Positions 32,189 through 57,779 of a stretch of 64,000 nt of DNA are shown piece after piece. The translations under genes and the position numbers were made by a program. The notes beneath the pieces are model-generated. The model was not told where the DNA came from and made no database searches. It worked only from the letters and a program-made list of their open reading frames with translations. Numbering within the stretch: position 1 is the stretch's first letter; the number at the start of each line of letters is the position of its first letter. The DNA comes from a virus. The stretch is taken from positions 1 to 64,000 of IMG/VR virus record IMGVR_UViG_3300030339_000011, one strand, 5' to 3'.

Positions 32189-32296
32189 CTGTAATAAAAA
32201 CTTTATTTGTAATCTCTATATTTTTTACAAATATACTAAATTATATCCTATCTAACAAATATAAATGTTCAACATGAAAAATTAATATATAACTAC

Positions 32297-34019: not shown

Positions 34020-34112
34020 ATGTTAATTTTATTCAGTGGTCACAAATTATTCTATAATTTACCGCATTATGATGTGACCACAAAGATAATAAATATTTTT
34101 CAATTATGAAAA

Positions 34113-34739
34113 TTATAAATTAAATTTTCTTGCCATTACTTTTTCTGGATATTTAATCGCAAACCATTCTCTATATTCTCTTAAATCTGAATACGGTAAT
34201 TCATTACCTGTACATTCTAAATCTACTAAGCTTTGAGGTAACTCAGGTAACTCTGTTAATTTATTATTTGAACAATCTAAAAATTCTAAACCATCAGGCA
34301 AATTAGGCATTGATGTTAATTGATTTCCTGTACATTGCAAATCTCTTAATGTGCTTGGTAACTTAGGTAATGAAGTTAATTTGTTATTCATACAATATAG
34401 TTCAATTAATATGTCAGTAAGATCAGGTAACTTAATTATTCTATTATCTGAACAATATAGATATTTTAATGAACTTGGTATTTTATCTAACTTATTCAAG
34501 TCATTTTCAGAACAATTTAATGTTATCAATGTATTCGGTAACTTAGGCATTAAAGATATTGGATTACTCTCGCAATCTAAAATTTCTAATTTAATAGGTA
34601 ATTTTGGTAAAGATTTTATATTATTATTAGCACAACTTAAATATGTTAATGTATCAGGCAACTCTGGTATTTCTGATAATCCACTAAATGAACAATTTAA
34701 TTCTGTGGTCACACTCTCAAATTTCTTTATGTATTTCAT
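34113..34739 (-). CDS. famC LRR protein. Start moved to MKYIKKFES
   Basis: The track ORF (34113..34802) reads through the junction. ~8 YopM-type repeats; ends ARKFNL. Confidence 0.7.
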   Translation of the reverse strand: MKYIKKFESVTTELNCSFSGLSEIPELPDTLTYLSCANNNIKSLPKLPIKLEILDCESNPISLMPKLPNTLITLNCSENDLNKLDKIPSSLKYLYCSDNRIIKLPDLTDILIELYCMNNKLTSLPKLPSTLRDLQCTGNQLTSMPNLPDGLEFLDCSNNKLTELPELPQSLVDLECTGNELPYSDLREYREWFAIKYPEKVMARKFNL

Positions 34740-37006: not shown

Positions 37007-37047
37007 GTGAGTATATATTATATTTCAATTGTCAAATCCTTATATTG

Positions 37048-37078
37048 AAAAACTCAGTTAAAATTAATTAACTGAGTT
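37048..37078. terminator. Fibre-gene terminator hairpin AACTCAGTTAAAATTAATTAACTGAGTT
   Basis: Palindrome with a T-run. The same hairpin follows four other fibre-cluster genes. Confidence 0.55.
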
Positions 37079-37086
37079 GTTTATTT

Positions 37087-38970: not shown

Positions 38971-38994
38971 TAATATTTTTATTTCTATATATTA
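38971..38994 (-). promoter_or_regulatory. Conserved fibre-gene upstream motif (TAATATATAGAAATAAAAATATTA on the gene strand)
   Basis: The same TATATATAGAAATAAAA element precedes the ATG of genes at 40872, 43333, 59773, 61973 and 63650, and the micro-ORF at 59456. A shorter form precedes 51589. Confidence 0.5.
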
Positions 38995-39033
38995 AAAAAC
39001 TCAGTTAAAATTAATTAACTGAGTTGTTTATTT

Positions 39034-40872: not shown

Positions 40873-40933
40873 TAATATTTTTATTTCTATATATTAAAAA
40901 ACTCAGTTAAAATTAATTAACTGAGTTAGTTTA

Positions 40934-43333: not shown

Positions 43334-43423
43334 AAGTTATTTTTATTTCTATATATAAAAATATATAAAAAAATAACATTTGTGAACACAAATGTTATTA
43401 TATACCTTACTAATTTTTATATT

Positions 43424-44926: not shown

Positions 44927-45427
44927 TTATATGTTAAATTTATTTGCAGAATACTTCTCTGGAAATTCTTTAAAATCCTTATAACCATCTAAGTTATTAT
45001 AAGGTAAATTATTACCATAACAATATAACCTCTCTAATGAATCAGGTAACTCTGGTAATTCAGATATATTATTGCTCTCACAATCTAAATATTTTAATGT
45101 ATTAGGTAATTTAGGCAATGATGTTAATTCATTACTTGTACAAAACAATTCCTCTAATGTATCAGGTAACTCAGGCAACTCACTTATTTTATTATAACAA
45201 CAATCTAAGCCAATTAATTTAGTAGGTATCTCTGGTAATTTCGTTAATTTATTACTAGAACAATTTAAATTTTTTAATGTAACAGGTAACTTTGGTAACG
45301 TAGTTAAATCATTACCAAGACAATTTAAATTTAATAATGTACTAGGCAACTTCGGTAACTTACTCAATCCTTTTTGAAAACAATTTAATGTTGTTACTAT
45401 GCCCTCAAACTCCTTTATATACTTCAT
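44927..45427 (-). CDS. famC LRR protein, 166 aa
   Basis: MKYIKEFEG ... ANKFNI. Confidence 0.75.
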   Translation of the reverse strand: MKYIKEFEGIVTTLNCFQKGLSKLPKLPSTLLNLNCLGNDLTTLPKLPVTLKNLNCSSNKLTKLPEIPTKLIGLDCCYNKISELPELPDTLEELFCTSNELTSLPKLPNTLKYLDCESNNISELPELPDSLERLYCYGNNLPYNNLDGYKDFKEFPEKYSANKFNI

Positions 45428-45429
45428 AA

Positions 45430-45747
45430 TTAAATATTAAATTTTGTTGCACAAACTGATAACATATATTTATTTTTCTCCTCATCTGTAGCATCTTTTG
45501 TTATTTTATTTATATTAGACCTTTTGATTTGTATGTAACCATCACTTAACGTATTGAAATTAACATCTTTTGATTTTATCTCATATGTATCACCAATATA
45601 ATTACAAAAATAATCATAAAATTCATAATTTAAAGAATTAGTCTTAGATAACCTTAATTTACCTATCGCTCTGAAATCTTTATAATTATAACTAAATATA
45701 TCATCAAATGATTTTACTATACCCTCAAACTCCTTTATATACTTCAT
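45430..45747 (-). CDS. famC protein with a unique body (MKYIKEFEGIV ... CATKFNI)
   Basis: ORF track. Confidence 0.6.
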   Translation of the reverse strand: MKYIKEFEGIVKSFDDIFSYNYKDFRAIGKLRLSKTNSLNYEFYDYFCNYIGDTYEIKSKDVNFNTLSDGYIQIKRSNINKITKDATDEEKNKYMLSVCATKFNI

Positions 45748-45749
45748 GA

Positions 45750-46337
45750 TTAAATATTAAATTTTCTTGATTGAAAAATATCAGGCTGATTTATCTCTAA
45801 CCATTCATTATATTCTTTCAAATTTTTATATGGTAAATTATTACCGCCACAATCTAAATATTCTAATGTATAATGCAATAATGGTAACTCACTTAAATTG
45901 TTATCATGACAATCCAATTCTTTTAATGATAATGGTAATATAGGTAGAGAAGTTAAATTATTTTTATAACAACTTAATTTTATTAATGTACTTGGTAATT
46001 TAGGTAACTCAGTCAATTCGTTTTTATAACAATTAAATTTTATTAATGTATCAGGTAATTCAGGTAACTCAGTTAATTTATTATTACTACAAAATAATAC
46101 TTCTAATCCATCAGGTAAAGTTGGTAAAGAGTATAATAAATTTTTACCACAATATAACTCTTTTAATGTATCAGGCAACTCTGTAAACTCACTTATCTTA
46201 TTTCCACTACAATACAATTTCTCTAATGTATCTGACAACTCAGGTAACTCTGTTATGCCTTCTCCAAAACTTGTATTAGTTAATTTTAAGATATTGTCTT
46301 CGTTCTCTATATGTTCAAACTTTTTTATATACTTCAT
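45750..46337 (-). CDS. famC LRR protein, 195 aa
   Basis: MKYIKKFEH ... SRKFNI. Confidence 0.75.
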   Translation of the reverse strand: MKYIKKFEHIENEDNILKLTNTSFGEGITELPELSDTLEKLYCSGNKISEFTELPDTLKELYCGKNLLYSLPTLPDGLEVLFCSNNKLTELPELPDTLIKFNCYKNELTELPKLPSTLIKLSCYKNNLTSLPILPLSLKELDCHDNNLSELPLLHYTLEYLDCGGNNLPYKNLKEYNEWLEINQPDIFQSRKFNI

Positions 46338-46339
46338 TG

Positions 46340-46858
46340 CTATATGTTAAATTTATTTGCTCCACCAATCTCAGGATGATTTTCTTCTAACCACTTCTTA
46401 TATCCAATTAAATCATTATAAGGTAAATTGTTCCTTGAACATGTTAATGTTCGTAATGTATTAGGTAATAAAGGCAACTCACTCAAATTGTTATCCTGAC
46501 AATATAACTCCTTTAATCCATCAGGTAAAATAGGTAACTCACTTAATTTATTATCAGCACACGATAATATAAATAATGTATCAGGTAACTTTGGTAACTC
46601 AATTAATTCATTTTCATAACAATATAATATCTCTAATCCATCAGGTAGATTTGGTAATCTCTCTAATCTGTTCCTTGTACAATCTAAATATCTTAATGTA
46701 TCAGGTAACTTAGGTAATGTATGTAAATTGTTAAGAGAACAACGTAACTTCTCTAATGTATCAGGTAAATTAGTTAAATCATTAATATTTTCATCATTAC
46801 AATCTAAATCTGTAACAATACTCTCAAATTTCTTATTAAATCTCTTTATATACTTCAT
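46340..46858 (-). CDS. famC LRR protein, 172 aa
   Basis: MKYIKRFNK ... ANKFNI. Confidence 0.75.
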   Translation of the reverse strand: MKYIKRFNKKFESIVTDLDCNDENINDLTNLPDTLEKLRCSLNNLHTLPKLPDTLRYLDCTRNRLERLPNLPDGLEILYCYENELIELPKLPDTLFILSCADNKLSELPILPDGLKELYCQDNNLSELPLLPNTLRTLTCSRNNLPYNDLIGYKKWLEENHPEIGGANKFNI

Positions 46859-46860
46859 AG

Positions 46861-47310
46861 TTATATGTTAAATTTATTAGCTGCATACTTCTCTGGAAAT
46901 TCTTTCCAATCATTATAACTATCCAAATCATAATATGGAAAATCATTTCCTCCACAATCTAAATTCTCTAATGATGCAGGCAAATCAGGTAATGAATTTA
47001 ACTTATTATTAGAACAATCTAATATCCTTAATCCTTCAGGTAACTTTGGTAAATATTTTAATTTGTTGTTGTAACAATATAATATCTCTAATGTATTAGG
47101 TAACTTCGGCAATGACATTAAATAATTACTGTTGCAATATAATGTCTTCAAATTGATAGGCAACTCAGGTAATTCATTTAAATAATTATCATTGCAATAT
47201 AATGTAACCAATCCATTAGGTAAATCAGGTAATACAGTTAAATAAGATTTAGAATAATCTAATGGCATTATCAAAATTTTTATCTTCTCAAAACTCTTTA
47301 TATACTTCAT
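46861..47310 (-). CDS. famC LRR protein, 149 aa
   Basis: MKYIKSFEK ... ANKFNI. Confidence 0.75.
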   Translation of the reverse strand: MKYIKSFEKIKILIMPLDYSKSYLTVLPDLPNGLVTLYCNDNYLNELPELPINLKTLYCNSNYLMSLPKLPNTLEILYCYNNKLKYLPKLPEGLRILDCSNNKLNSLPDLPASLENLDCGGNDFPYYDLDSYNDWKEFPEKYAANKFNI

Positions 47311-47312
47311 TG

Positions 47313-47753
47313 TTATATGTTAAATTTTTTAGCCATTCCCTGAGGAGTTTTAGAATACCAAAATTTATATCCATCTAAATCCTCATAAGGTAAATTGTTA
47401 CCACCACAATGTAATATACTTAAATTTTCAGGCAACTCAGGCAAATCACTTAATTTATTGTTAGAACAATATAACATTTTCAATGTATTAGGCAACTTAG
47501 GTAATGACGTTAATTCATTATTAGTACAATATAATTCTTTTAATTCAATAGGTAACTCAGGCAACTCTGTTAAATAATTAAAATTGCAAACTATATTCTC
47601 TAATGTATCAGGTAATATAGGTAACTCAGTTAATTTATTACGATGACAACGCAATGTTATCAAATTATTAGGCAACTTAGGTAATTTTGTTAACTGTTGA
47701 TCAGAACATTCAAAATCTGTAACTCTACTCTCAAACCTCTTTATATACTTCAT
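47313..47753 (-). CDS. famC LRR protein, 146 aa
   Basis: MKYIKRFES ... AKKFNI. Confidence 0.75.
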   Translation of the reverse strand: MKYIKRFESRVTDFECSDQQLTKLPKLPNNLITLRCHRNKLTELPILPDTLENIVCNFNYLTELPELPIELKELYCTNNELTSLPKLPNTLKMLYCSNNKLSDLPELPENLSILHCGGNNLPYEDLDGYKFWYSKTPQGMAKKFNI

Positions 47754-47755
47754 TG

Positions 47756-48136
47756 TTATATGTTAAATTTATTAGCTGAATAAGACTCAGGAGATTCTTT
47801 CCATTCCTTATACTCTCTCAAGTTATTATAAGGCAAATAATTACCATCACATTCTAAAAATTCTAATCCTATCGGTAAATTAGGTAACTCCCTTAACTTA
47901 TTATCAGAACAATCTAAATATTGTAATGTATCAGGTAACTCTGGTAATGAAGTTAAATAATTACCACTACAATATAATAAATCTAATGCATCTGGTAACT
48001 TAGGTAACTCTGTTAATTCATTATAATTACAATTCAAATAAGTTAATGTATCAGGTAACACTGGTAATATTTTTAAATTACTACTAGATAAATCTAACTC
48101 TGTTACTGTACTATCAAATCTCTTTATATACTTCAT
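47756..48136 (-). CDS. famC LRR protein, 126 aa
   Basis: MKYIKRFDS ... ANKFNI. Confidence 0.75.
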   Translation of the reverse strand: MKYIKRFDSTVTELDLSSSNLKILPVLPDTLTYLNCNYNELTELPKLPDALDLLYCSGNYLTSLPELPDTLQYLDCSDNKLRELPNLPIGLEFLECDGNYLPYNNLREYKEWKESPESYSANKFNI

Positions 48137-48138
48137 TG

Positions 48139-48525
48139 TTATATGTTAAATTTTTTACCATTACTAACCTCAGGATGATTTACTTCTAACCATCTATTAT
48201 ATTCTCTTAAATTGTTATAAGGTAATTTGTTACCACTGCAATTAAAATCTATTAATGAATTAGGTAATATAGGTAACTCTCTTAATCTGTTATCACTAAT
48301 ATCTAAATATAGTAAATTATAAGGTAAATTAGGTAAAGAATCTAAATTGTTAGATTGACAATATAATTCTTCTAATGTTATAGGTAACTCTGACAACTCT
48401 GTTAAATTATTATAAGAACAATTTAAATATTCTAAATTTTCAGGTAAATGCGGCAACTCAATTAAATGCTCATTAGAACAATCTAATGATATAATAGTAT
48501 GCTCAAACTTTTTAATGTATCTCAT
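48139..48525 (-). CDS. famC LRR protein. Start moved to MRYIKKFEH
   Basis: Track ORF is 48139..48567. Ends GKKFNI. Confidence 0.7.
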   Translation of the reverse strand: MRYIKKFEHTIISLDCSNEHLIELPHLPENLEYLNCSYNNLTELSELPITLEELYCQSNNLDSLPNLPYNLLYLDISDNRLRELPILPNSLIDFNCSGNKLPYNNLREYNRWLEVNHPEVSNGKKFNI

Positions 48526-48595
48526 AACATTATATATTATTTTATAAATGCCATAAATCTTAATCAATCATAATTTTAAACAAAAAATAACAAAT

Positions 48596-48635
48596 GTGAC
48601 CACAAATGTTACTTTAACCCTCACCGAAGTTTTAA
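48596..48635 (-). promoter_or_regulatory. Conserved GC-rich upstream element GTGACCACAAA...TTTMMCCCTCACCGAAGTTTTAA (shown on the plus strand)
   Basis: Near-identical copies at 49244-49296, 50428-50480 and 50777-50802. Each lies upstream of a minus-strand LRR or famC gene. Confidence 0.5.
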
Positions 48636-48636
48636 T

Positions 48637-49215
48637 CTATATGTTGTATTTTCTACTATTAATAACCTCAGGATGATTAATAGAAAGCCAATCATTATAA
48701 CCATCCAAACCATCATAAGGTAAATTATTATGATCACAAACTAAATATAGTAATGACTTAGGTAAATTTAATGGTAACTCACGTAAATCATTATAAGAAC
48801 ATTCTAATAACTCTAACGTATCAGGTAACTCTGGTAACTCACTTATGTTATTCTCAGAACAATTTAACTTGATTAATCCATTAGGTAATGTAGACAAACT
48901 TTTTAATTTGTTGTCAGAACAAAATATGTATTTTAATCCTTCAGTTAAGCCAGATAAATCTTCTAACCTGTTGCTGTTGCAATTTAAATAATCTAATGAA
49001 ATAGGTAACTCAGGTAACTTAGTTAATCTGTTGTTAAAAAAACTTAAATTTACTAATCCATCAGGTAAGCCAGATATTGTAGTCAATCTGTTGTTATAAC
49101 AAAACAAATTTATTAATGTACTAGGTAACTCTGGTAATACCTCTAAACCCTTATCACTTAAATCTAACTCTGTTATTGGAATAATAAATTTCTCAAACTG
49201 CTTTACATGCTTCAT
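48637..49215 (-). CDS. famC LRR protein, 192 aa (MKHVKQFEK ... SRKYNI)
   Basis: ORF track. Confidence 0.75.
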   Translation of the reverse strand: MKHVKQFEKFIIPITELDLSDKGLEVLPELPSTLINLFCYNNRLTTISGLPDGLVNLSFFNNRLTKLPELPISLDYLNCNSNRLEDLSGLTEGLKYIFCSDNKLKSLSTLPNGLIKLNCSENNISELPELPDTLELLECSYNDLRELPLNLPKSLLYLVCDHNNLPYDGLDGYNDWLSINHPEVINSRKYNI

Positions 49216-49306
49216 AATCTATATGTATTTTTTTAATAACAAGTGTGACCACAAAAAATCAATAAAATGTTACTTTCTCCCTCACCGAAGTTTTAAAATA
49301 TCTAAA

Positions 49307-49816
49307 CTATATACTAAATTTAGAAGCAGCATATACATCTGGATGATTCTCCTTTATCCATCTCCTGTAACCATGTATATTATTATAAGGTAATCCATTA
49401 CCATCACAATATAAATATTCTAATGAAGAAGGTAAATGTAAAGGCAACTCAGTTAATTTATTGTTATTACACGTCAATTCAATTAATGACTCTGGTAATA
49501 TAGGCAGTGAAGTTAAATTGTTATCATCACATCCTAAATATTCTAATCCATTAGGTAAATTAGGTAACTCACTTAATCCATTACCATTACAACCTAAATC
49601 AACTAATGTATCAGGTAATTCAGGTAACGAACTTAAATTATTATGATCACAATATAAAACTGTTAAACCATTAGGTAACTCTGGTAACTCCTTTAATCTA
49701 TTACCACTACACCTTAACTCCCTTAATTCATTAGGTAAATCAGGTAATACCTCTAAATTCCTTAAAGATACATTTATATCTGTAACCATACTCTCAAACT
49801 GCTTAATATGCTTCAT
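49307..49816 (-). CDS. famC LRR protein, 169 aa (MKHIKQFES ... ASKFSI)
   Basis: ORF track. Confidence 0.75.
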   Translation of the reverse strand: MKHIKQFESMVTDINVSLRNLEVLPDLPNELRELRCSGNRLKELPELPNGLTVLYCDHNNLSSLPELPDTLVDLGCNGNGLSELPNLPNGLEYLGCDDNNLTSLPILPESLIELTCNNNKLTELPLHLPSSLEYLYCDGNGLPYNNIHGYRRWIKENHPDVYAASKFSI

Positions 49817-49819
49817 AAA

Positions 49820-50326
49820 CTATATGTTAAATTTTCTACTATTAAATACCTCAGGATGATGTATTGACATCCAATGATTATAACTATTCAAATCCTTATA
49901 AGGTAACCCATTACCACTACAATTTAAAATTCTTAATCCATTAGGTAATATAGGCAATGACTTTAATAAATTACCTGTACAATATAACTCCTTTAAACCC
50001 TCAGGTAAATTAGGTAACTCCATTAAATTGTTGTCAGAACAATATAACTCCCTTAATCCATCAGGCAACTTAGGTAACGATGTTAATTCATTTATACTGC
50101 AATATAAATATACTAATGATTCAGGTAACTCTGGTAATGATACTAATTTATTACTACCACAATATATTGTAATTAAACCATTAGGTAAAGTAGGTAATGA
50201 TACCAATAAATTGCTGTTGCACTCCAATGTCTCTATAGTAGAAGGCAAATCAGGTAATAATTCTAAATCCTTGTGAGAATATACTAATTTCCTAACTATC
50301 TCTTCATTTACTTTTAAATGCTTCAT
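49820..50326 (-). CDS. famC LRR protein. Start moved to MKHLKVNEE
   Basis: Track ORF is 49820..50374. Ends SRKFNI. Confidence 0.7.
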   Translation of the reverse strand: MKHLKVNEEIVRKLVYSHKDLELLPDLPSTIETLECNSNLLVSLPTLPNGLITIYCGSNKLVSLPELPESLVYLYCSINELTSLPKLPDGLRELYCSDNNLMELPNLPEGLKELYCTGNLLKSLPILPNGLRILNCSGNGLPYKDLNSYNHWMSIHHPEVFNSRKFNI

Positions 50327-50489
50327 AATATTATATATTAATCTAAAATACCCCAAAATAACAACCCAACACAATTAGAGACGCATTCCAATAAATTCAC
50401 TTAATATCAATATGTTAAACGATAACCGTGACCACAAAATAACCAAAAATATTCACTTTCTCCCTCACCGAAGTTTTAAATAATTAATG

Positions 50490-50768
50490 CTATATGTTAA
50501 ATTTCATAGAATTAAGTATAACCTCTATTGATTCTAAATTATTAGAATAATGCTTTATGTCCTGTAAATTGCAATAATACCTCTCTATTCCAATATAAAA
50601 ATATAAAAGATGATATAAACCATCAGAAATTGATGTTATCTTACCAAAGTTGTTTGATATGAAATTTATTTCATCATCTCCATTACCTATATATTCACCA
50701 TAACATATAACATAATCTCCTACCTGCGGTATATTCTCAGTCATTTCAATTTCCATTTCAATTTCCAT
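50490..50768 (-). CDS. famC protein (C1; PQVGDYVICYGEY ... SMKFNI). The start may be the internal MTENIP at 50744
   Basis: ORF track. The N-terminal MEIEMEIEM arises from a short tandem DNA repeat. Confidence 0.55.
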   Translation of the reverse strand: MEIEMEIEMTENIPQVGDYVICYGEYIGNGDDEINFISNNFGKITSISDGLYHLLYFYIGIERYYCNLQDIKHYSNNLESIEVILNSMKFNI

Positions 50769-50769
50769 T

Positions 50770-51588
50770 TAATTATTCACTTTCTCCCTCACCGAAGTTT
50801 TAATATCAAAAAAATATTTAAAATGCTCTAAATATTCAAAATCTTCTAAATATCTACAAAAATGATTACAATCATTTGATAATCAACTAAATATGAATGC
50901 ATTATATCATCATACAAATATACTAATAAATATCGGTACTGACAAATTATAAAACAAGAAAAATAGTGCTAAATATAGTGCTAAATTTGTGTCCGTGACG
51001 TGCCAAATTGATGAAATACTTGGTAAAATTTCTTAAAATGACACTTTTTTAACTAAAAATTAATGGTGGTCACGTAATAATGTGAAAATAAAAACATTGA
51101 CCACTGACGGTGGTCCAAAGAAAAATAAATCTTCTAAGATAGTATGCATATATTTCAACGTAACCACCTAATACTCAGACCTTTACAAATTTCCATAAGT
51201 CTTTGATAATCAGTACTTTAAATTTTAACAAGATTTATGGATCATTATGATTTAGGAAATTTAGGAATCATTAAGTTAAAATTATAAAAGGAAAGATAAT
51301 GGAATTTAACGTTTGCTGAAATGTTAAAATCCTTTAAGTTAAAATTATTAAGTTAAATATTATAAAGGTAAGATAATGGAGATTAACATAAAGTATTGAT
51401 GTTAATATATTTATAAATTTGTATTATATACAATAAATAAGAATATAATTAAATATAATTAAACTTGTTAATATATAGATATTATTACACATTACTGTAA
51501 TTAGAAAAATAAAAGAATGATAAAAGATAGTGGATTTTTACAAATGTAAATTTCTTAAAATAATATATCTTTTTTAATATATAGAAGT
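50770..51588. other. 820-bp non-coding strand-switch island
   Basis: No ORF of 60 aa or more. Contains palindrome GACCACTGACGGTGGTC, GTGGTCAC/GTGACG motifs, and two ~40-bp direct repeats TTAAGTTAAAATTATAAARGGWAAGATAATGGARATTAAC at about 51280 and about 51345. Confidence 0.5.
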
Positions 51589-51855
51589 ATGATAACAATT
51601 TTTAAGACATTTGAAATGAATGAATATAAACCTGATGTAGGAGACTATGTCATTTGTTCTGGAGAATTTTCATCAAATAAAAATTTCATAACAACTCATA
51701 TTGGTAAGATAAGACGTATTGATAGTTGGCAATATAAAATAGAATATAAATATAGTGAAAATGATTACTTATGTAATTTACAGTGCATCTTATATTGGTC
51801 CAACAATAAAGAAGAATTAGAATTAATATTAAATACAAAAAAATTTAACATATGA
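51589..51855 (+). CDS. famC protein (C1; ends NTKKFNI)
   Basis: MITIFKTFEMNEYKPDVGDYVICSG... TTAATATATAGAAGT sits directly upstream of the ATG. Confidence 0.65.
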   Translation: MITIFKTFEMNEYKPDVGDYVICSGEFSSNKNFITTHIGKIRRIDSWQYKIEYKYSENDYLCNLQCILYWSNNKEELELILNTKKFNI

Positions 51856-52996: not shown

Positions 52997-53500
<504 letters not shown>

Positions 53501-53517
53501 CTACAAAGATAATACAT

Positions 53518-53898: not shown

Positions 53899-54029
53899 AA
53901 TTTAATATAGTTTAGGTAGGATAAAGATATGTAAAAATTTTGAGTTACACAATTATTACTACATTTATTATTACATTATTTTTGAAATAAATGCTACAAA
54001 AAAAAGAAGAACTAAATGTTCTTCTTTTT

Positions 54030-55303: not shown

Positions 55304-55340
55304 ATTTTTTTATGATTATATATTAAATTTAATTACTGAA

Positions 55341-55934
55341 TATTACTGTGGTGACTTCTATTATTTAACAATCTTTAACTTGGTATATCCGATATAAAGC
55401 GTTATCTTTGTATCGTGATTGACAGTGTAATGCCTGGAGTATATTCTCCAACGCGGGACATTACGTAACTGTTAAACAATCATTATAAATGTTATCACTT
55501 TAACTGTTTTAACCTAACAATATTAAACTTGTTAAGGATTTAACTCTTCACAAATGTACAACACACTTTAAATCAAATAGTTACAGAGATATACAGGAAA
55601 TATGCAGGATTAACGCATAATTATAGATGTTAATACGGTATATAAAATGCATAAACGTAACTCTGTTATTTACAGATAGTTACAAGTAAGTCCTATAATA
55701 ATATATTATGATCAATACTAATTTCCTGTTATAACTGTTAAGGATTTAACTACTGTTATACTAATCTTAAATAAGTTAAAATGTTTTAACAGTTACGTAT
55801 TACCCCGCTCTCGGGCTCCATGATCCTACGTCCATGTTATCAAGACAAAGATAACGCTTTTAATTGATTTTACAAAATTTTATATGGTTAAGAATAAATA
55901 AAGATTGTTAAATTTAACATATCACCACAGTAAT
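55341..55934. repeat. Large imperfect inverted repeat (arms ~130-150 bp) around a ~310-bp centre. Could be a foldback or MITE-like element, or an origin-like structure
   Basis: Left-arm blocks ATTACTGTGGTGA, AAAGCGTTATCTTTGT and TACGTAACTGTTAAA reappear as reverse complements in mirrored order in the right arm (55786-55934). The centre has the direct repeat GTTAAGGATTTAACT at 55529 and 55727. Confidence 0.55.
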
Positions 55935-55998
55935 ATTTACAAAGTAAATACCTGCAACAGCAGTAATGTTCGATAAATAAATTTTAATATATAACAAT

Positions 55999-56268
55999 AT
56001 GAGACACATTAAAAACATTAAACAATTTAAATCAAGTAGAAATTCTAAATTTAAAAAAGGAGATTATATCATGTCAACTAAAAGTAATAAAAAAGGTATT
56101 ATAGATAATATAATATCTTCTGATAAACCTGAAGATTTTGAATTTGCATATCATTTAAAAGATTATAAAGATAATATTTATCTTAAAGATACAAGTATAA
56201 TATTAATGACACCAGAACAAATTGAACAATATAACCTTGAAAAATCAACTGATAAATTTAACCTATGA
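55999..56268 (+). CDS. famC protein, subtype C3 (MRHIKNIKQFKS ... STDKFNL)
   Basis: AATATATAACAAT sits directly upstream of the ATG. Confidence 0.6.
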   Translation: MRHIKNIKQFKSSRNSKFKKGDYIMSTKSNKKGIIDNIISSDKPEDFEFAYHLKDYKDNIYLKDTSIILMTPEQIEQYNLEKSTDKFNL

Positions 56269-56831
56269 AATATATTAAACACTTCGAAAGATCTTATGTA
56301 ACAGTAAATTATTCTAATCAACATTTAACTGAACTTCCTATATTACCTGATATATTATATGAATTGTATTGCTCAAATAACGACATATATAAGCTACCTA
56401 CATTACCTGATACATTAATATATATTACCTGCGCTAATAATAATCTTAATGAGCTACCTGAGTTGCCAATATCATTGAAACATTTATTTTGCTATAATAA
56501 TAAATTGAATGAACTACCTAAATTACCTGACAGCTTATTAACATTGTCATGTAGTAGTAATAACATTACTGAACTTCCTATACTACCTAATAAATTAGAG
56601 TCATTGTCATGTAGTGGTAACTATATATCTGAGCTACCTATGCTACCTAATACATTGATTGAACTGAATTGTAGTGACAATAACCTTACCATGCTACCTA
56701 TACTACCTGATAGCTTAAAAACATTGTACTGTAATGGTAATGAACTACCATACACTAACCTCAAAGAGTATAATGAATGGCTAACGATAACCCATCCTGA
56801 AGTAATCAACGCTAAGAAGTTTAACATATAA
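56265..56831 (+). CDS. famC LRR protein, 188 aa (MKYIKHFER ... AKKFNI)
   Basis: ATGA overlap with the upstream gene. ~8 YopM-type repeats. Confidence 0.75.
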   Translation: MKYIKHFERSYVTVNYSNQHLTELPILPDILYELYCSNNDIYKLPTLPDTLIYITCANNNLNELPELPISLKHLFCYNNKLNELPKLPDSLLTLSCSSNNITELPILPNKLESLSCSGNYISELPMLPNTLIELNCSDNNLTMLPILPDSLKTLYCNGNELPYTNLKEYNEWLTITHPEVINAKKFNI

Positions 56832-57016
56832 TATAATGTGACCACATACCATTACATATGTACATACCTTAACACATACCTTAACATTATTCACACGTGA
56901 CCACACAAATGCCATAGACATATACCTTAACATATCATAAGGACAACACGTACATATAAATGTCCTGAACATTATCTACACAATAAATGCTCTTAACATT
57001 TTATTTGTTGAGAGCA

Positions 57017-57399: not shown

Positions 57400-57760
57400 A
57401 CACAGGTTGTGTGTAATACTTGGGTACTACTGGGGTGCTATCCACTGGGTGGTATCTGGTATCAACATATCAATACTGCTGCTAAGGTATCTAAGTACCA
57501 TGATAGAAATCTTAGAAATTTTTAAAGAGTTCTTCACAAGGTTGTCCATCAAGAGAGGGAGCGAAGAAGTTCATGAACATTTGTCGGAGATGACGACGCG
57601 CGAAAGTCGGCCGTGACTTACTAAGTGTTAATACGAATTCGCACTTGAGTCGGATGTTCATGAACACTTGCCTACTAGACTTGGTGATGGTGTTGAGCGA
57701 CTTGCGCGTGTAGAGTGTGTATGCAGGTATAGGGCAGCCATGGCGAAAAATTGTTAATAT
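57400..57760. other. GC-rich non-coding block (locally much higher GC than the 24% background)
   Basis: Contains the 10-bp palindrome GTTCATGAAC twice (about 57568 and about 57655), plus CGCGCG and GTCGGCCGTGAC. Only a low-complexity ORF overlaps it. Confidence 0.4.
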
Positions 57761-57779
57761 TTGAGTATGTTAATATTTG

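Follow-up and report, generated by a model that had tools for sequence, protein, structure and literature searches.

Composite promoter/terminator cassettes occur in the hyperplastic regions of T4-type phages (PMC4122927). These elements, the promoter-early and promoter-middle stem-loops or PeSL and PmSL (Arbiol et al. 2010, PMC2839356; Comeau et al. 2014, PMC4122927), have so far been described in T4 relatives infecting coliform hosts (coliphage), Yersinia and Vibrio. They are short, conserved composite sequences occupying the spacers that separate small accessory ORFs, lineage-specific in sequence and often degraded ('half' elements); they cluster where relatives differ in gene content and are thought to move gene cassettes via recombination between copies. 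In a PeSL, a stem-loop lies immediately upstream of a sigma-70-like early promoter of the form -35, N17, -10, and a Shine-Dalgarno sequence with a start codon forms the 3' edge. T4 middle promoters, which serve a subset of genes and involve sigma appropriation by MotA/AsiA, combine a host-type -10 element with a phage-specific MotA box, (a/t)(a/t)(a/t)TGCTT(t/c)A, placed 11-13 bp before it. The lambda nutL/nutR, RfaH ops and Bacteroides opsX (PMC11685472) signals are directional and sense-oriented, are found in few operon-specific copies in the transcribed leader or right after the first gene's stop, ahead of a terminator, and lie at variable distances from the start codon.

We analysed a window of 64,000 nt (24% GC) from IMG/VR record IMGVR_UViG_3300030339_000011, which derives from a peat source. 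The phage is huge and T4-related, with a gp9/10 N-terminal domain, gp32 and Y16D as T4-type markers in the window or its flank, and its host is probably a member of the Bacteroidota. Searches for tRNA and tmRNA were negative. The signal considered here lies in a dense, tightly packed, co-directional array of small LRR and other genes (100-200 aa), whose products have a common N-terminal tag and could be effectors that are packaged or injected; no relatives of them were found in cultured phages. By analogy, the signal resembles the promoter/terminator cassettes of T4-type phages, and the best reading of the element is a lineage-specific, PeSL-like boundary cassette. It shares with PeSLs their placement, lineage specificity, degraded copies and, perhaps, clustering where gene content varies. 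It differs in that its purine-rich 27-nt core lacks sigma-70 -35/-10 hexamers, in that hairpins follow or overlap the core instead of preceding it, and in that no Shine-Dalgarno sequence and start codon stand at the 3' edge, the distance from core to ATG varying from 8 to about 140 nt. It is also scarce, with four copies in 84 kb and no indel polymorphism among strains.

The 18-mer CCCTCACCGAAGTTTTAA (+ strand) has exactly four matches in the window, at 48618, 49279, 50462 and 50786. A scan tolerating up to three mismatches returned the same four sites and no others (expected 0.02), and four matches were reached in 0 of 100 shuffled sequences. The string TTAAAACTTCGGTGAGGG likewise occurs four times against 0.02 expected, always in intergenic sequence and always on the minus (gene) strand. 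Among GC-containing 12-mers repeated at least three times in the window, the motif is the sole purely intergenic family. The fourfold repeat upstream of minus-strand genes that a sequence-only reading had noticed is thus real. It does not, however, consist of near-identical blocks of 40-55 bp, because the four window cores are 94% identical and their flanks fall to 34-42%. The conserved unit is instead a 27-nt core with a T-run, giving a signal of 27-35 bases with the consensus AA(C/G)TT(C/T)(G/A)GT(G/C)AGGG(A/T)GAAAGT(G/A)A, then 2-3 nt, then the T-run, which resembles the host -7 box TAnnTTTG and is retained at +31 to +35 in 6-8 of 8 copies from the window and a related phage. Copies in the window are spaced 324, 1183 and 661 nt apart, all within 2.2 kb, and c4 and c3, with one gene between them, are identical over 30 nt. 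Features of the array head and of related sites are collected in Table 1.

Table 1. Positions of the core copies and of associated features in the window (c1-c4, core copies; strand as annotated).
Feature	Position	Strand	Remarks
Core copy c4 (TTAAAACTTCGGTGAGGGAGAAAGTGA)	50777..50803	-	first array gene begins 8 nt further on, at ATG 50768; without GTGACCAC and without T-run
Core copy c3 with T-rich box	50443..50479	-	core 50453-50479; starts 10 nt after TAG 50490-50492
T-rich box of c3 (TATTTTTG)	50444-50451	-	perfect fit to Bacteroidota -7 consensus TAnnTTTG
Core copy c2 with T-rich stretch	49260..49296	-	core 49270-49296, ...AAAGTAA subtype; 10 nt after TAG 49307-49309
Core copy c1 (TTAAAACTTCGGTGAGGGTTAAAGTAA)	48609..48635	-	begins 1 nt after TAG 48637-48639
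Terminator-type hairpin after c1, then T-tract	48579..48615	-	-8.7 kcal/mol, z -3.0; 5' arm AAAGUAACA is the core 3' end; tip GUGGUCAC
GTGACCAC after c1 (GTGGTCAC on gene strand)	48596..48603	+	
GTGACCAC after c2	49245..49252	+	within a decayed version of the c1 hairpin
GTGACCAC after c3	50428..50435	+	without hairpin
Second GC-containing box of c3 spacer (ATGCGTCTCTAATTGTGTTGG)	50366..50386	-	kept in relative (L015 8946-8966); box repeated twice at 59657-59726
Proximal TTAATATATAAT	50330..50341	-	3 nt before ATG 50326; general pre-ATG element of the phage; string also ends KFNI* genes
Predicted host-type (Bacteroidota) promoter, TTTG-N20-TATATTTG	50915..50946	-	~110 nt upstream of c4; leftward array
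Perfect 18-bp palindrome, AAATGATT-AC-AATCATTT	50860..50877	.	between predicted promoter and c4; kept in relative
Terminator hairpin GACCACCGTCAGTGGTC with T-run	51099..51115	-	upstream of the predicted array promoter; kept in relative
Strong array-end terminator (AAUAACAUUUGUG/CACAAAUGUUAUU)	43365..43399	-	-10.4 kcal/mol, z -4.3, then U7
Inverted pair GTGGTCAC ... GTGACCAC	34036..34081	.	after another LRR gene; -15 kcal/mol hairpin
Two direct GTGACCAC copies (56838, 56897)	56838..56904	+	after LRR gene 56265-56831
GTGACCAC in divergent spacer	51066..51073	-	

The genes marked by the element are set apart by longer spacers, as had been proposed: copy-bearing spacers measure 111, 91, 163 and 820 nt, compared with 0-3 nt between neighbouring array genes. 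They are not four consecutive genes, since the gene at 49307-49816 keeps an ordinary 3-nt junction and the element precedes array genes 1, 2, 4 and 5. Two of the gene starts assigned earlier, 48567 and 50374, belong to TTG ORF extensions, and the conserved N-termini begin at ATG 48525 and ATG 50326. Describing the copies as lying upstream of genes also gives half the picture: every copy has a same-strand gene downstream, but three begin 1-10 nt past the stop codon of the preceding gene. The full order in the spacers is the previous stop codon, core and T-run, in some copies a terminator-type hairpin representing the GTGACCAC part, and an AT-rich stretch that ends in TTAATATATAR followed by N3 and the ATG. 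Genes of this phage have no Shine-Dalgarno sequence and carry TTAATATATAR before the ATG. The element is always intergenic and gene-oriented, and it is indeed distinct from the junction sequence, previously read as mini-promoters.

A related phage carries four diverged, gene-oriented copies (La, Lb, Lc and Ld), and all eight copies from the two phages are intergenic and run in the same orientation as their flanking genes. Core identity is 76% within the relative and 78% between the phages, with flanks at 34-46% overall and at 35-46% in the comparison between phages; proteins of the pair are about 40-50% identical and their spacers are at background. On this comparison the repeat is a real, selected cis element, because the core stays 78% identical between two phages whose flanks have reached background. 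The syntenic phages differ in copy positions, the array-leader position alone being common to both, and two copies are adjacent in the relative where the window has one gene between c4 and c3. In the relative the copies are arranged as two tandem pairs whose starts lie 89 and 88 nt apart, and at 46% vs 38% identity (p about 0.09) the spacers of the pairs show no detectable homology.

An nhmmer profile of the eight copies found no further copies in the window or its 20-kb flanks (84 kb in total) and none in three more distant relatives, including near homologous genes. A genome-wide motif scan had been proposed, and over the 84 kb nothing beyond the four copies came of it; a genome-wide promoter class does not fit so local a distribution. 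Contigs carrying the same genes (11, then 8 more) proved to be 99.4-100% identical strains of no comparative value, and in 20 near-identical strain contigs the same four copies were present throughout, with no presence/absence or indel polymorphism. The exact 18-mer gave no match in a scan of IMG/VR and three in JGI metagenome contigs, of which the one inspected was an unrelated contig of 44% GC; that collection evidently does not contain this phage. BLAST of the region and of a 40-nt motif against 50,697 phage records returned nothing meaningful. The repeat is part of neither a larger dispersed repeat nor a mobile element with terminal repeats: no terminal inverted repeats of the MITE type bound the copy-bearing spacers, and an ATATAG repeat flanking the c2 spacer, in the place of a target-site duplication, is ordinary gene-end/junction sequence.

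The motif GTGACCAC had been regarded as a part of all four copies. It accompanies c1, c2 and c3 only, and we treat it as a feature separate from the core because it is missing from the related phage and because in c1 it forms the loop and tip of a terminator-like hairpin. Its earlier sightings elsewhere in the window are borne out, with nine occurrences of GTGACCAC/GTGGTCAC against 0.17 expected, except that the last lies at 56897 and not at 56890; the ninth copy, newly added, lies within a coding region at 34705-34712 and encodes V-T-T in MKYIKKFESVTTELNCS. An origin as a relic of LRR 5' coding sequence (V-T-T, 34705) was rejected, as the core-adjacent intergenic copies are oppositely oriented. 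In the hairpin at 34036..34081, the first arm shares sequence with TATCTTTG, a perfect -7 box on the minus strand (34081-34088).

Two copies, c1 and La, run directly into terminator-type hairpins, which lie downstream of the core or overlap its 3' end; the hairpin of La is strong (-17 kcal/mol) and lies within 10 nt. The search found none at c3, c4, Lb, Lc and Ld. The c1 hairpin and the array-end terminator show just four differences over about 32 positions, and the latter is the intact relative (homologue) of the former. At c2 the outer stem AGUAACA/UGUUAUU is kept in a remnant whose fold (-6.4 kcal/mol) is not significant. The segment after c1 and the perfect 18-bp hairpin after La are like the phage's intrinsic terminators, whereas the 27-nt core has no hairpin and the segments after c2 and c3 no longer fold. 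Two Logan assemblies (four samples) contain a 2,997-nt contig that runs from window position 51582 to 48586 and ends inside the T-tract after the c1 hairpin; this end would be direct evidence of 3'-end formation if the runs are metatranscriptomes, and it does not enter into the argument here.

As a single reading of its function, we tentatively favor a factor-dependent promoter, formed by the core and the T-rich box, that would restart transcription at a terminator. Transcripts arriving from upstream would stop at the hairpin, and the promoter would start new ones into the next gene, with a phage-specified recognition box, comparable to the MotA box of T4 middle promoters, substituting for the host -33 element. 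At c1, a start inside the hairpin would yield a transcript without the 5' arm, which would not be terminated; the identity of that arm with the core 3' end fits an overlapping terminator and promoter. Recombination would have copied the cassettes or moved them about within the region, as happens to PeSLs in T4-type phages. We infer promoter activity, a reading factor and recombination alike. Full promoters of the form TTTG-N19-20-TAnnTTTG (seven matches in the window) use the same box type, and four of the seven, all gene-oriented, fall in spacers, which make up about 8% of the sequence; the boxes of Lb, Lc and Ld match TAnnTTTG at 7 of 8 positions.

Of the earlier suggestion of an operator or a promoter, the promoter half thus stands as the most probable single function, and the operator half fits an asymmetric core poorly. 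Several points nevertheless weigh against a promoter. Four copies in 84 kb and none in distant relatives are sparse for a promoter class. There is no -33 TTTG at the correct distance, the -7-like box is exact in c3 only, and conservation spans the whole would-be promoter spacer, which is unusual for sigma-type promoters. The copies c1 and La would fire straight into terminator-type hairpins, the order of core and hairpin being the reverse of that in PeSLs, and the predicted host-type promoter already serves the array; at least c4 is probably transcribed, because that promoter lies 110 nt upstream of it. The proposed likeness to T4 middle promoters, namely a host-type -7-like box with a phage-specific upstream box in place of -33/-35, serving some of the genes of a T4-related phage, likewise has its differences: TGCTT is found in 0 of 8 cores, core conservation is continuous up to the -7-like element, and the host, probably of the Bacteroidota, has another sigma architecture. 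Pfam searches of the 136 ORFs of the window, beyond which the genome extends for >200 kb, detected no sigma, MotA/AsiA, other transcription-factor or DNA-binding domain, no RNA polymerase domain and no NusG/KOW or N-/Q-like protein. A sigma-70 consensus scan, uninformative in such AT-rich sequence, gave 38 sites against 33.8 expected, which is not enriched, and none coincides with the core. Sigma-54, ECF and SPO1-type promoters were rejected on a comparison of consensus sequences by eye.

The strongest competitor, on balance rather unlikely, sees the core as a signal that is transcribed and directs processive antitermination or pausing, in the manner of lambda nut or ops/opsX. Recognition would take place either in the nascent RNA or on the non-template strand of a paused bubble, and an elongation factor of phage or host origin would be loaded there; polymerase from the array promoter would then pass the following hairpins, and distal array genes would be expressed with a delay. 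Placement mirrors nutL/nutR, with the predicted promoter followed by one or two leader copies (c4; Lc and Ld) and other copies 0-10 nt after a stop, c1 and La standing between stop and hairpin (-8.7 and -17 kcal/mol). Such a signal would also suit the use of the gene strand in 8 of 8 copies, the variable gap before the next ATG, the linear, unfolded character of the motif and a local, operon-specific distribution. Furthermore, GGGAGAAAGT|G fits the elemental pause G-10 / Y-1 / G+1 and is followed by the T-run, but this match is short and common by chance. Leader ops elements of about 40 bp are used with NusG paralogs by Bacteroidota (PMC11685472). The core, however, contains no boxA CGCTCTTA, no ops GGCGGTAGnnTG and no published opsX string such as CTGCGAAGCATA; no boxB-type or upstream pause hairpin precedes it, and no cognate factor, whether N or a NusG paralogue of the RfaH/UpxY type, was identified among the window ORFs. 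Lb lies after a hairpin and before a promoter-like box, where the signal is not needed, and c2 and c3 have no convincing downstream terminator. A new directional elongation-control signal, nut/ops-like in behavior but unrelated in sequence and without a hairpin, also seems unlikely to us; in the leader or after early stops, it would license read-through of the phage's own terminators into the array and so would time the expression of the LRR and other array proteins.

We consider it rather improbable that the core is a DNA operator at the array head, not itself a promoter, for a sequence-specific regulator (a repressor, activator or looping protein) or a nucleoprotein complex. Few, local sites would suit an operator, and so would conserved blocks that recur roughly every 5 nt, a weak dyad (ACTTC-N9-GAAAGT) discernible within the core and the nearby perfect palindrome, itself conserved. 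The tandem pairs of the relative, kept at 89 and 88 nt despite spacers without detectable homology, hint at a spacing constraint, but the window copies are unevenly spaced and keep no fixed distance to the promoter-like box or the ATG. An operator does not require the single orientation seen in all eight copies of the asymmetric core, and it leaves the T-run unexplained; no DNA-binding domain was detected in the window.

That the copies are functionless, passive relics of gene-plus-spacer tandem duplication or recombination scars is quite improbable. Neighbouring LRR genes are paralogues, the c2 spacer ends with a 13-nt relic of the 3' end of a deleted gene (AAAATACATATAG), and the near identity of the four window cores is what a recent duplication or gene conversion would leave. 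Within these units, however, the adjoining coding and spacer sequence is only 34-76% identical against 94-100% for the core, the core is conserved between phages whose spacers are at background, and c4 sits before a non-LRR gene.

The best explanation is that the signal is read as sequence, by a protein or by RNA polymerase, and not as an RNA fold. No consensus structure emerged over the eight copies, single-fold z scores were about 0 and leader folds gave no signal; Rfam 15 yielded no covariance-model match at gathering score in the window and chance-level matches only in 48400-51700 (E 0.8-3.7, scores below half of the gathering value). It is very improbable that the element is a structured RNA, be it a riboswitch-like leader, an sRNA or a ribozyme, or that it codes for a short leader peptide initiated at GTG (MREKV...). 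RNAalifold of the c3 and Ld leaders pairs the core with a downstream GCGTCT box and finds one compensatory change, C:G to G:C, which was judged too weak; the consensus energy is only -4.5 kcal/mol, the single folds differ (z +0.8 and -0.3), the partner box is missing from the other six copies, and no Rfam match above chance level was obtained even at E <=5. A GTG-started ORF of 7-18 codons is present in one frame in six of eight copies, but its length and sequence vary, its start is missing in two copies, and the most conserved bases lie upstream of the start. Stop-codon read-through with a C-terminal extension was rejected, c3 having a TAA two codons past its TAG. Least likely of all is a promoter for a T7/T3-type single-subunit RNA polymerase (T3 consensus AATTAACCCTCACTAAAGGGAGA) with a minus-strand start at GGGAGA: the length of about 23 nt and the high conservation are typical of T3/T7/SP6 promoters, c1 on the plus strand (TTAACCCTCACCGAAG) matches the T3 promoter TTAACCCTCACTAAAG at 14 of 16 positions, Lc reads CCCTCACTAAAC, the motif carries CCCTCAC on one strand, and GGGAGA stands on the gene strand in six of eight copies, but in both phages the flanking genes all lie antisense to the T3-like strand, which has (G/C)TTT(T/A) instead of GGGAGA at +1 to +6 and TTTCT(C) instead of AT-rich sequence at -17 to -12, the gene strand has GTGA, GTCA or GTGG instead of AT-rich sequence at -4 to -1, and four sites in 84 kb go with no RNA polymerase domain in the window.

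To our knowledge, metagenomes are the only source of Mahaphage-type huge phages, and we know of nothing on their transcription timing. The signal is short, well-delimited and strand-specific and marks the head of an accessory-gene array, and thus offers a concrete handle on this timing: it can be used for scanning complete genomes, for mapping metatranscriptomes of the same peat samples and as bait for its reading factor. Should it prove to be a factor-dependent promoter, as we tentatively favor, a T4 middle-mode-like programme fitted to Bacteroidota sigma factors would be hinted at for the first time; an antitermination signal would represent a new class. PeSL-style boundary cassettes may also reach very distant huge phages, where they could drive the turnover of effector-like gene arrays.

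A sequence-only reading had described four near-identical 40–55-bp blocks upstream of four consecutive genes in the leftward, minus-strand array of small leucine-rich repeat (LRR) and other genes. The observation was largely right as to a four-copy intergenic repeat, but the conserved unit is only 27 nt long and reads TTAAAACTTCGGTGAGGG(AG/TT)AAAGT(G/A)A on the minus (gene) strand. Pairwise identity among the copies of this core (c1–c4, Table) is 94% over the 27 nt, compared with 34–42% in the 50–80 nt on each side. The exact 18-mer inside the core has four occurrences, to which allowing three mismatches adds none (chance expectation 0.02), and the core family is the sole GC-containing repeated 12-mer family that is wholly intergenic. 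Counted leftward, the genes marked are numbers 1, 2, 4 and 5 rather than four in succession; gene 49307-49816 retains a normal junction with no core ahead of it. The core-bearing spacers (111, 91 and 163 nt, plus an 820-nt divergent region) are the only real ones of the array, whose other genes abut at 0–3 nt. Three of the four window cores start 1–10 nt past the preceding gene's stop codon, and c4 lies 8 nt from the ATG of the first array gene. This gene is without the usual N-terminus of its family, which reads as a deletion fusing the core to codon ~6. Within the core, 13–15 of 20 positions are purines, and a T-run comes next. No RNA structure above shuffled controls was obtained in single folds, in the consensus fold of eight copies or in whole-leader folds, and searches of the window gave no tRNA and no Rfam family. 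Hence, the core is recognised as sequence and not as a fold.

Contigs with the same proteins were 99.4–100% identical in the region and carried the same four core copies. SNPs between these near-identical strains were few and clustered in LRR coding sequence. All 14 strain SNPs of 48100-51600 fell at 49705-50022, within the adjacent LRR genes 49307-49816 and 49820-50326, and the bunching of several at 49759-49766 suggests gene conversion between LRR repeats. A related phage (contigs L015–L018; IMG/VR L020–L022) was found through the LRR homologue P0005 (46% identity, same N- and C-terminal tags). Its locus, in synteny with 48-54 kb of the window, comprises MNKEEL-family genes, a GDYVIC-family gene, an LRR array and a homologous divergent spacer, and contains four diverged core copies (La–Ld), 4/4 on the gene strand. 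Between the two phages, identity is 78% in the core versus 36–40% in the flanks, a contrast that shows clear purifying selection on the core. La begins at a KFNI-gene stop codon. Downstream of it come T7 and a perfect 18-bp hairpin (−17 kcal/mol, z −7.7), behind which Lb is positioned; a TATCTTTG box follows ~40 nt past Lb, 20 nt ahead of the ATG of an MNKEEL gene. Within the array leader, Lc and Ld stand in tandem. Both pairs, La/Lb and Lc/Ld, are spaced at 88–89 nt, with intervening spacers that have no detectable homology. The homologous KFNI-gene/MNKEEL-gene spacer of the window (53899-54029) holds a terminator and a promoter-like box and no core, and the related phage has nothing that corresponds to c1 or c2. 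Since the leader is the sole position common to both phages, core copies have been gained, lost or moved. In the MNKEEL-family genes themselves (52997-53485; L015 about 10250-10700), LSD(T/V)TKLNVYTP is encoded by tandem repeats that differ in number from one phage to the other and from strain to strain (products of 162 aa versus 140 aa in different contigs).

Table. Coordinates of core copies, predicted promoter elements and other repeated motifs (window positions unless stated; L015, contig of the related phage).
Feature	Position	Strand	Remark
Core c4	50803-50777	minus	
Core c3	50479-50453	minus	
Core c2	49296-49270	minus	
Core c1	48635-48609	minus	
Core La	related phage	gene strand	TAATAAGTTCGGTCAGGGAGAAAATGA
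Core Lb	related phage	gene strand	TTCAAAGTTCGGTCAGGGTGAAAGTGA
Core Lc	related phage	gene strand	TATAAAGTTTAGTGAGGGAGAAAGTAA
Core Ld	related phage	gene strand	TTGGAAGTTTAGTGGGGGAGAAAGTGA
Bacteroidota-type predicted promoter	50915-50946	minus	110 nt upstream of c4
Bacteroidota-type predicted promoters	32228-32259, 13095-13126, 55846-55876	minus	pattern match
−7 boxes	53504-53511, 34081-34088	minus	pattern match
Shared C-terminus/pre-ATG string regions	37007-37086, 38971-39033, 40873-40933, 43334-43423, 59740-59772, 61901-61972, 63551-63650		
GGGGAACGCGTCTCTAATTGATTAGGCT motif	59650-59730	plus	tandem pair upstream of tail-fibre-like gene
GGGGAACGCGTCTCTAATTGATTAGGCT motif, diverged	50366-50386	minus	c3 spacer
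GGGGAACGCGTCTCTAATTGATTAGGCT motif, diverged	L015 8946-8966	minus	related-phage counterpart

The short motif GTGACCAC, previously taken as the second half of the repeated block, lies 12–30 nt behind c1–c3 only, at variable distance. After c1, GUAACAUUUGUGGUCACAUUUGUUAUUUUUUG folds with −8.7 kcal/mol (z −3.0); the 5' arm of this hairpin is formed by the final nine bases of the core, and four positions distinguish it from the array-closing terminator at 43365-43399 (−10.4 kcal/mol, z −4.3). The c2 remnant keeps the outer stem only and that of c3 does not fold, so the terminator-type hairpin whose tip is GTGACCAC has decayed to varied degrees in these spacers. The window contains nine copies in total versus 0.17 expected, all within or beside LRR genes. 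The pair at 34036/34074 forms a hairpin of −15 kcal/mol, the first arm of which overlaps a perfect −7 box (TATCTTTG-TGGTCAC), those at 56838 and 56897 are direct repeats behind an LRR gene, and the one at 34705 falls in coding sequence. The palindrome-type pattern TTGTGNNCACAA was modestly enriched (8 versus 2), and the related phage has zero copies of GTGACCAC. The motif is genuine but heterogeneous (hairpin tip, possible 5'-terminal stem or short protein site) and is to be kept apart from the core as a separate feature.

The Bacteroidota promoter pattern TTTG-N18-21-TAnnTTTG gave seven matches versus 3.8 expected, which is not significant overall; four of them, including 50946-50915, fell in spacers (~8% of the window), each directed at the downstream gene. 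Full promoters of this type, TTTG-N19-20-TAT(A/C)TTTG, were seen in spacers toward downstream genes. Between c4 and the predicted promoter ahead of it lies a perfect palindrome (50860-50877) that is kept in the related phage, and a conserved minus-strand terminator (51115-51099) lies upstream of that promoter. Based on the predicted promoter, these conserved elements and the array-end terminator, the array transcript probably starts at ~50910 and ends near 43,370, with c4 transcribed. Assemblies of four sequencing runs (L010/L011) contain an identical 2,997-nt contig (48586-51582) whose two ends fall in the T-tract past the c1 hairpin and 7 nt short of the plus-strand ATG (51589). Should the runs prove to be RNA libraries, these positions would represent the ends of transcripts. 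The T-rich box past the core resembles a −7 box, exactly in c3 (TATTTTTG, 50451-50444) and at 7/8 positions in Lb, Lc and Ld. TTTG is absent 19–21 nt upstream of it, and a conserved AA(C/G)TT(C/T)(G/A)GT is found there instead.

The core is asymmetric and strictly intergenic, has a single orientation (8/8), and lies at a fixed distance from a conserved T-rich box and at a varying one from the ATG, features that suit a directional signal read by a protein or polymerase. The earlier interpretation as an operator or separate promoter class holds in part: the motif is a regulatory signal in its own right and may be a promoter. It is not an operator-like palindrome, nor a general promoter class, the copies being sparse and an eight-copy profile adding none in the window, in 20 kb flanks or, in three relatives that are more distant, near the homologous genes. 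Ranked first, if tentatively, is a factor-dependent promoter made up of core and T-rich box. A host-type −7-like box would be paired with a phage-specific upstream box substituting for the −33 element, set within boundary spacers that combine terminator and promoter, of the PeSL (promoter-early stem-loop) kind. At c1, the predicted start would lie inside the hairpin loop, so that incoming transcripts would be stopped and the new one would not. We counted against this promoter the sparseness of the motif, the conservation throughout the would-be promoter spacer, the strong hairpin that La faces and the other predicted promoter upstream of c4. A transcribed antitermination or pause signal, ranked second, appears doubtful. 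The placement of the core mirrors lambda nutL/nutR (in the leader, past the first stop codon, ahead of a terminator), and Bacteroidota use leader ops elements of about 40 bp with NusG paralogues (PMC11685472), but sequence similarity is lacking, no factor was found in the window and Lb is wrongly placed. The fixed spacing within the related phage's pairs would suit a DNA operator or nucleoprotein site, which we ranked third and consider improbable. That conservation of the core stands out against that of the flanks makes a passive relic of duplication unlikely. The opposite strand strikingly resembles a T3 promoter (14/16 in c1; CCCTCACTAAA in Lc), a likeness taken as coincidence because this strand runs antisense to every gene and the start region is missing.

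The window (GC range 19–30%) has ~136 ORFs, mostly small and densely packed, in none of which a domain of transcription-factor, sigma or NusG type was found. Two products have a T4 gp9/10-type N-terminal domain; others include Fib_succ_major, major-vault-protein-like and 18 LRR proteins, and gp32-like and T4_Y16D proteins are encoded in the left flank. The vault-like protein (7965-10424, 819 aa) combines major-vault-protein shoulder and repeat domains with a Band 7 domain. Over its full length it is 50–53% identical to proteins in three uncultured phage records of 462–735 kb. The largest phage genome reported by Al-Shayeb et al. (2020) is 735 kb, and the largest genomes there belong to the Mahaphage clade, with predicted Bacteroidetes hosts (PMC7162821). 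Contigs carrying identical genes were recovered from metagenomes of peat or bog, with JGI 3300029998, 3300029923, 3300030685 and 3300028859 and ENA ERZ272487xx as the source peat samples, and the longest contig is in the 0.2–1 Mb class. From the T4-type markers, the vault-like relatives and these contigs, we infer that the source is a huge T4-related phage, probably with a Bacteroidota host. No Shine-Dalgarno (SD) sequence precedes any gene, which, with the Bacteroidota-type promoters, fits such a host. Bacterial-type intrinsic terminators are evident, e.g. AACTCAGTTAA..TTAACTGAGTTTTTT ahead of each large structural gene.

About 60 small genes at 18661-56831 (e.g. 44927-48525), 0–3 nt apart, share the start MK(Y/H/I)IKxF(E/N) and the end KFN(I/L)-stop around unrelated middle parts (LRR, GDYVIC-type, others). 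The N-terminal tag is kept in distant relatives (loci L030, L033, L034 near 6000) where the C-terminal tag is lost. By its resemblance to MKTYQEFIAE, the capsid-targeting sequence of T4 internal proteins, the tagged proteins may be packaged or injected. The DNA string of the C-terminus, TTTAAYATATAR (F-N-I-stop), also occurs 17 nt ahead of the ATG of large structural genes, there as TTTAATATATAGAAATAAAA directly behind terminators. The string resembles a promoter of T4-late type (TAGAAATA versus TATAAATA) inside the last codons of the array genes. A 695-nt non-coding region (55304-55998) is built of nested long inverted repeats (arms of 51, 47 and 24 nt, 74–88% complementarity), with two inward-facing TATCTTTG boxes (55403 plus strand, 55846 minus strand) and no Rfam match; it may serve as an origin or an invertible segment, or encode a large structured RNA. 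GGGGAACGCGTCTCTAATTGATTAGGCT, the second of the GC-containing motifs in spacers, includes the palindrome CTAAT-TG-ATTAG. The 150-nt spacer at 57617-57766 has 43% GC versus 24% for the genome, no ORF and no Rfam hit with E ≤ 1.

None of the known consensus sequences compared matches the core element. Its closest functional likeness is to the PeSL/PmSL (promoter-early/promoter-middle stem-loop) cassettes, the former being composite terminator/promoter boundary cassettes of T4-type phages (PMC4122927), although it is without the three PeSL-defining features, namely sigma-70 hexamers, an upstream stem-loop and an SD at the edge. The proposed logic, in which the −33 element is replaced, parallels that of T4 middle promoters, where a MotA box takes the place of −35. 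The core element belongs with the conserved boundary/regulatory cassettes in hyperplastic regions of T4-related phages, and would be of higher interest if antitermination or a promoter of the sigma-appropriation type were shown.
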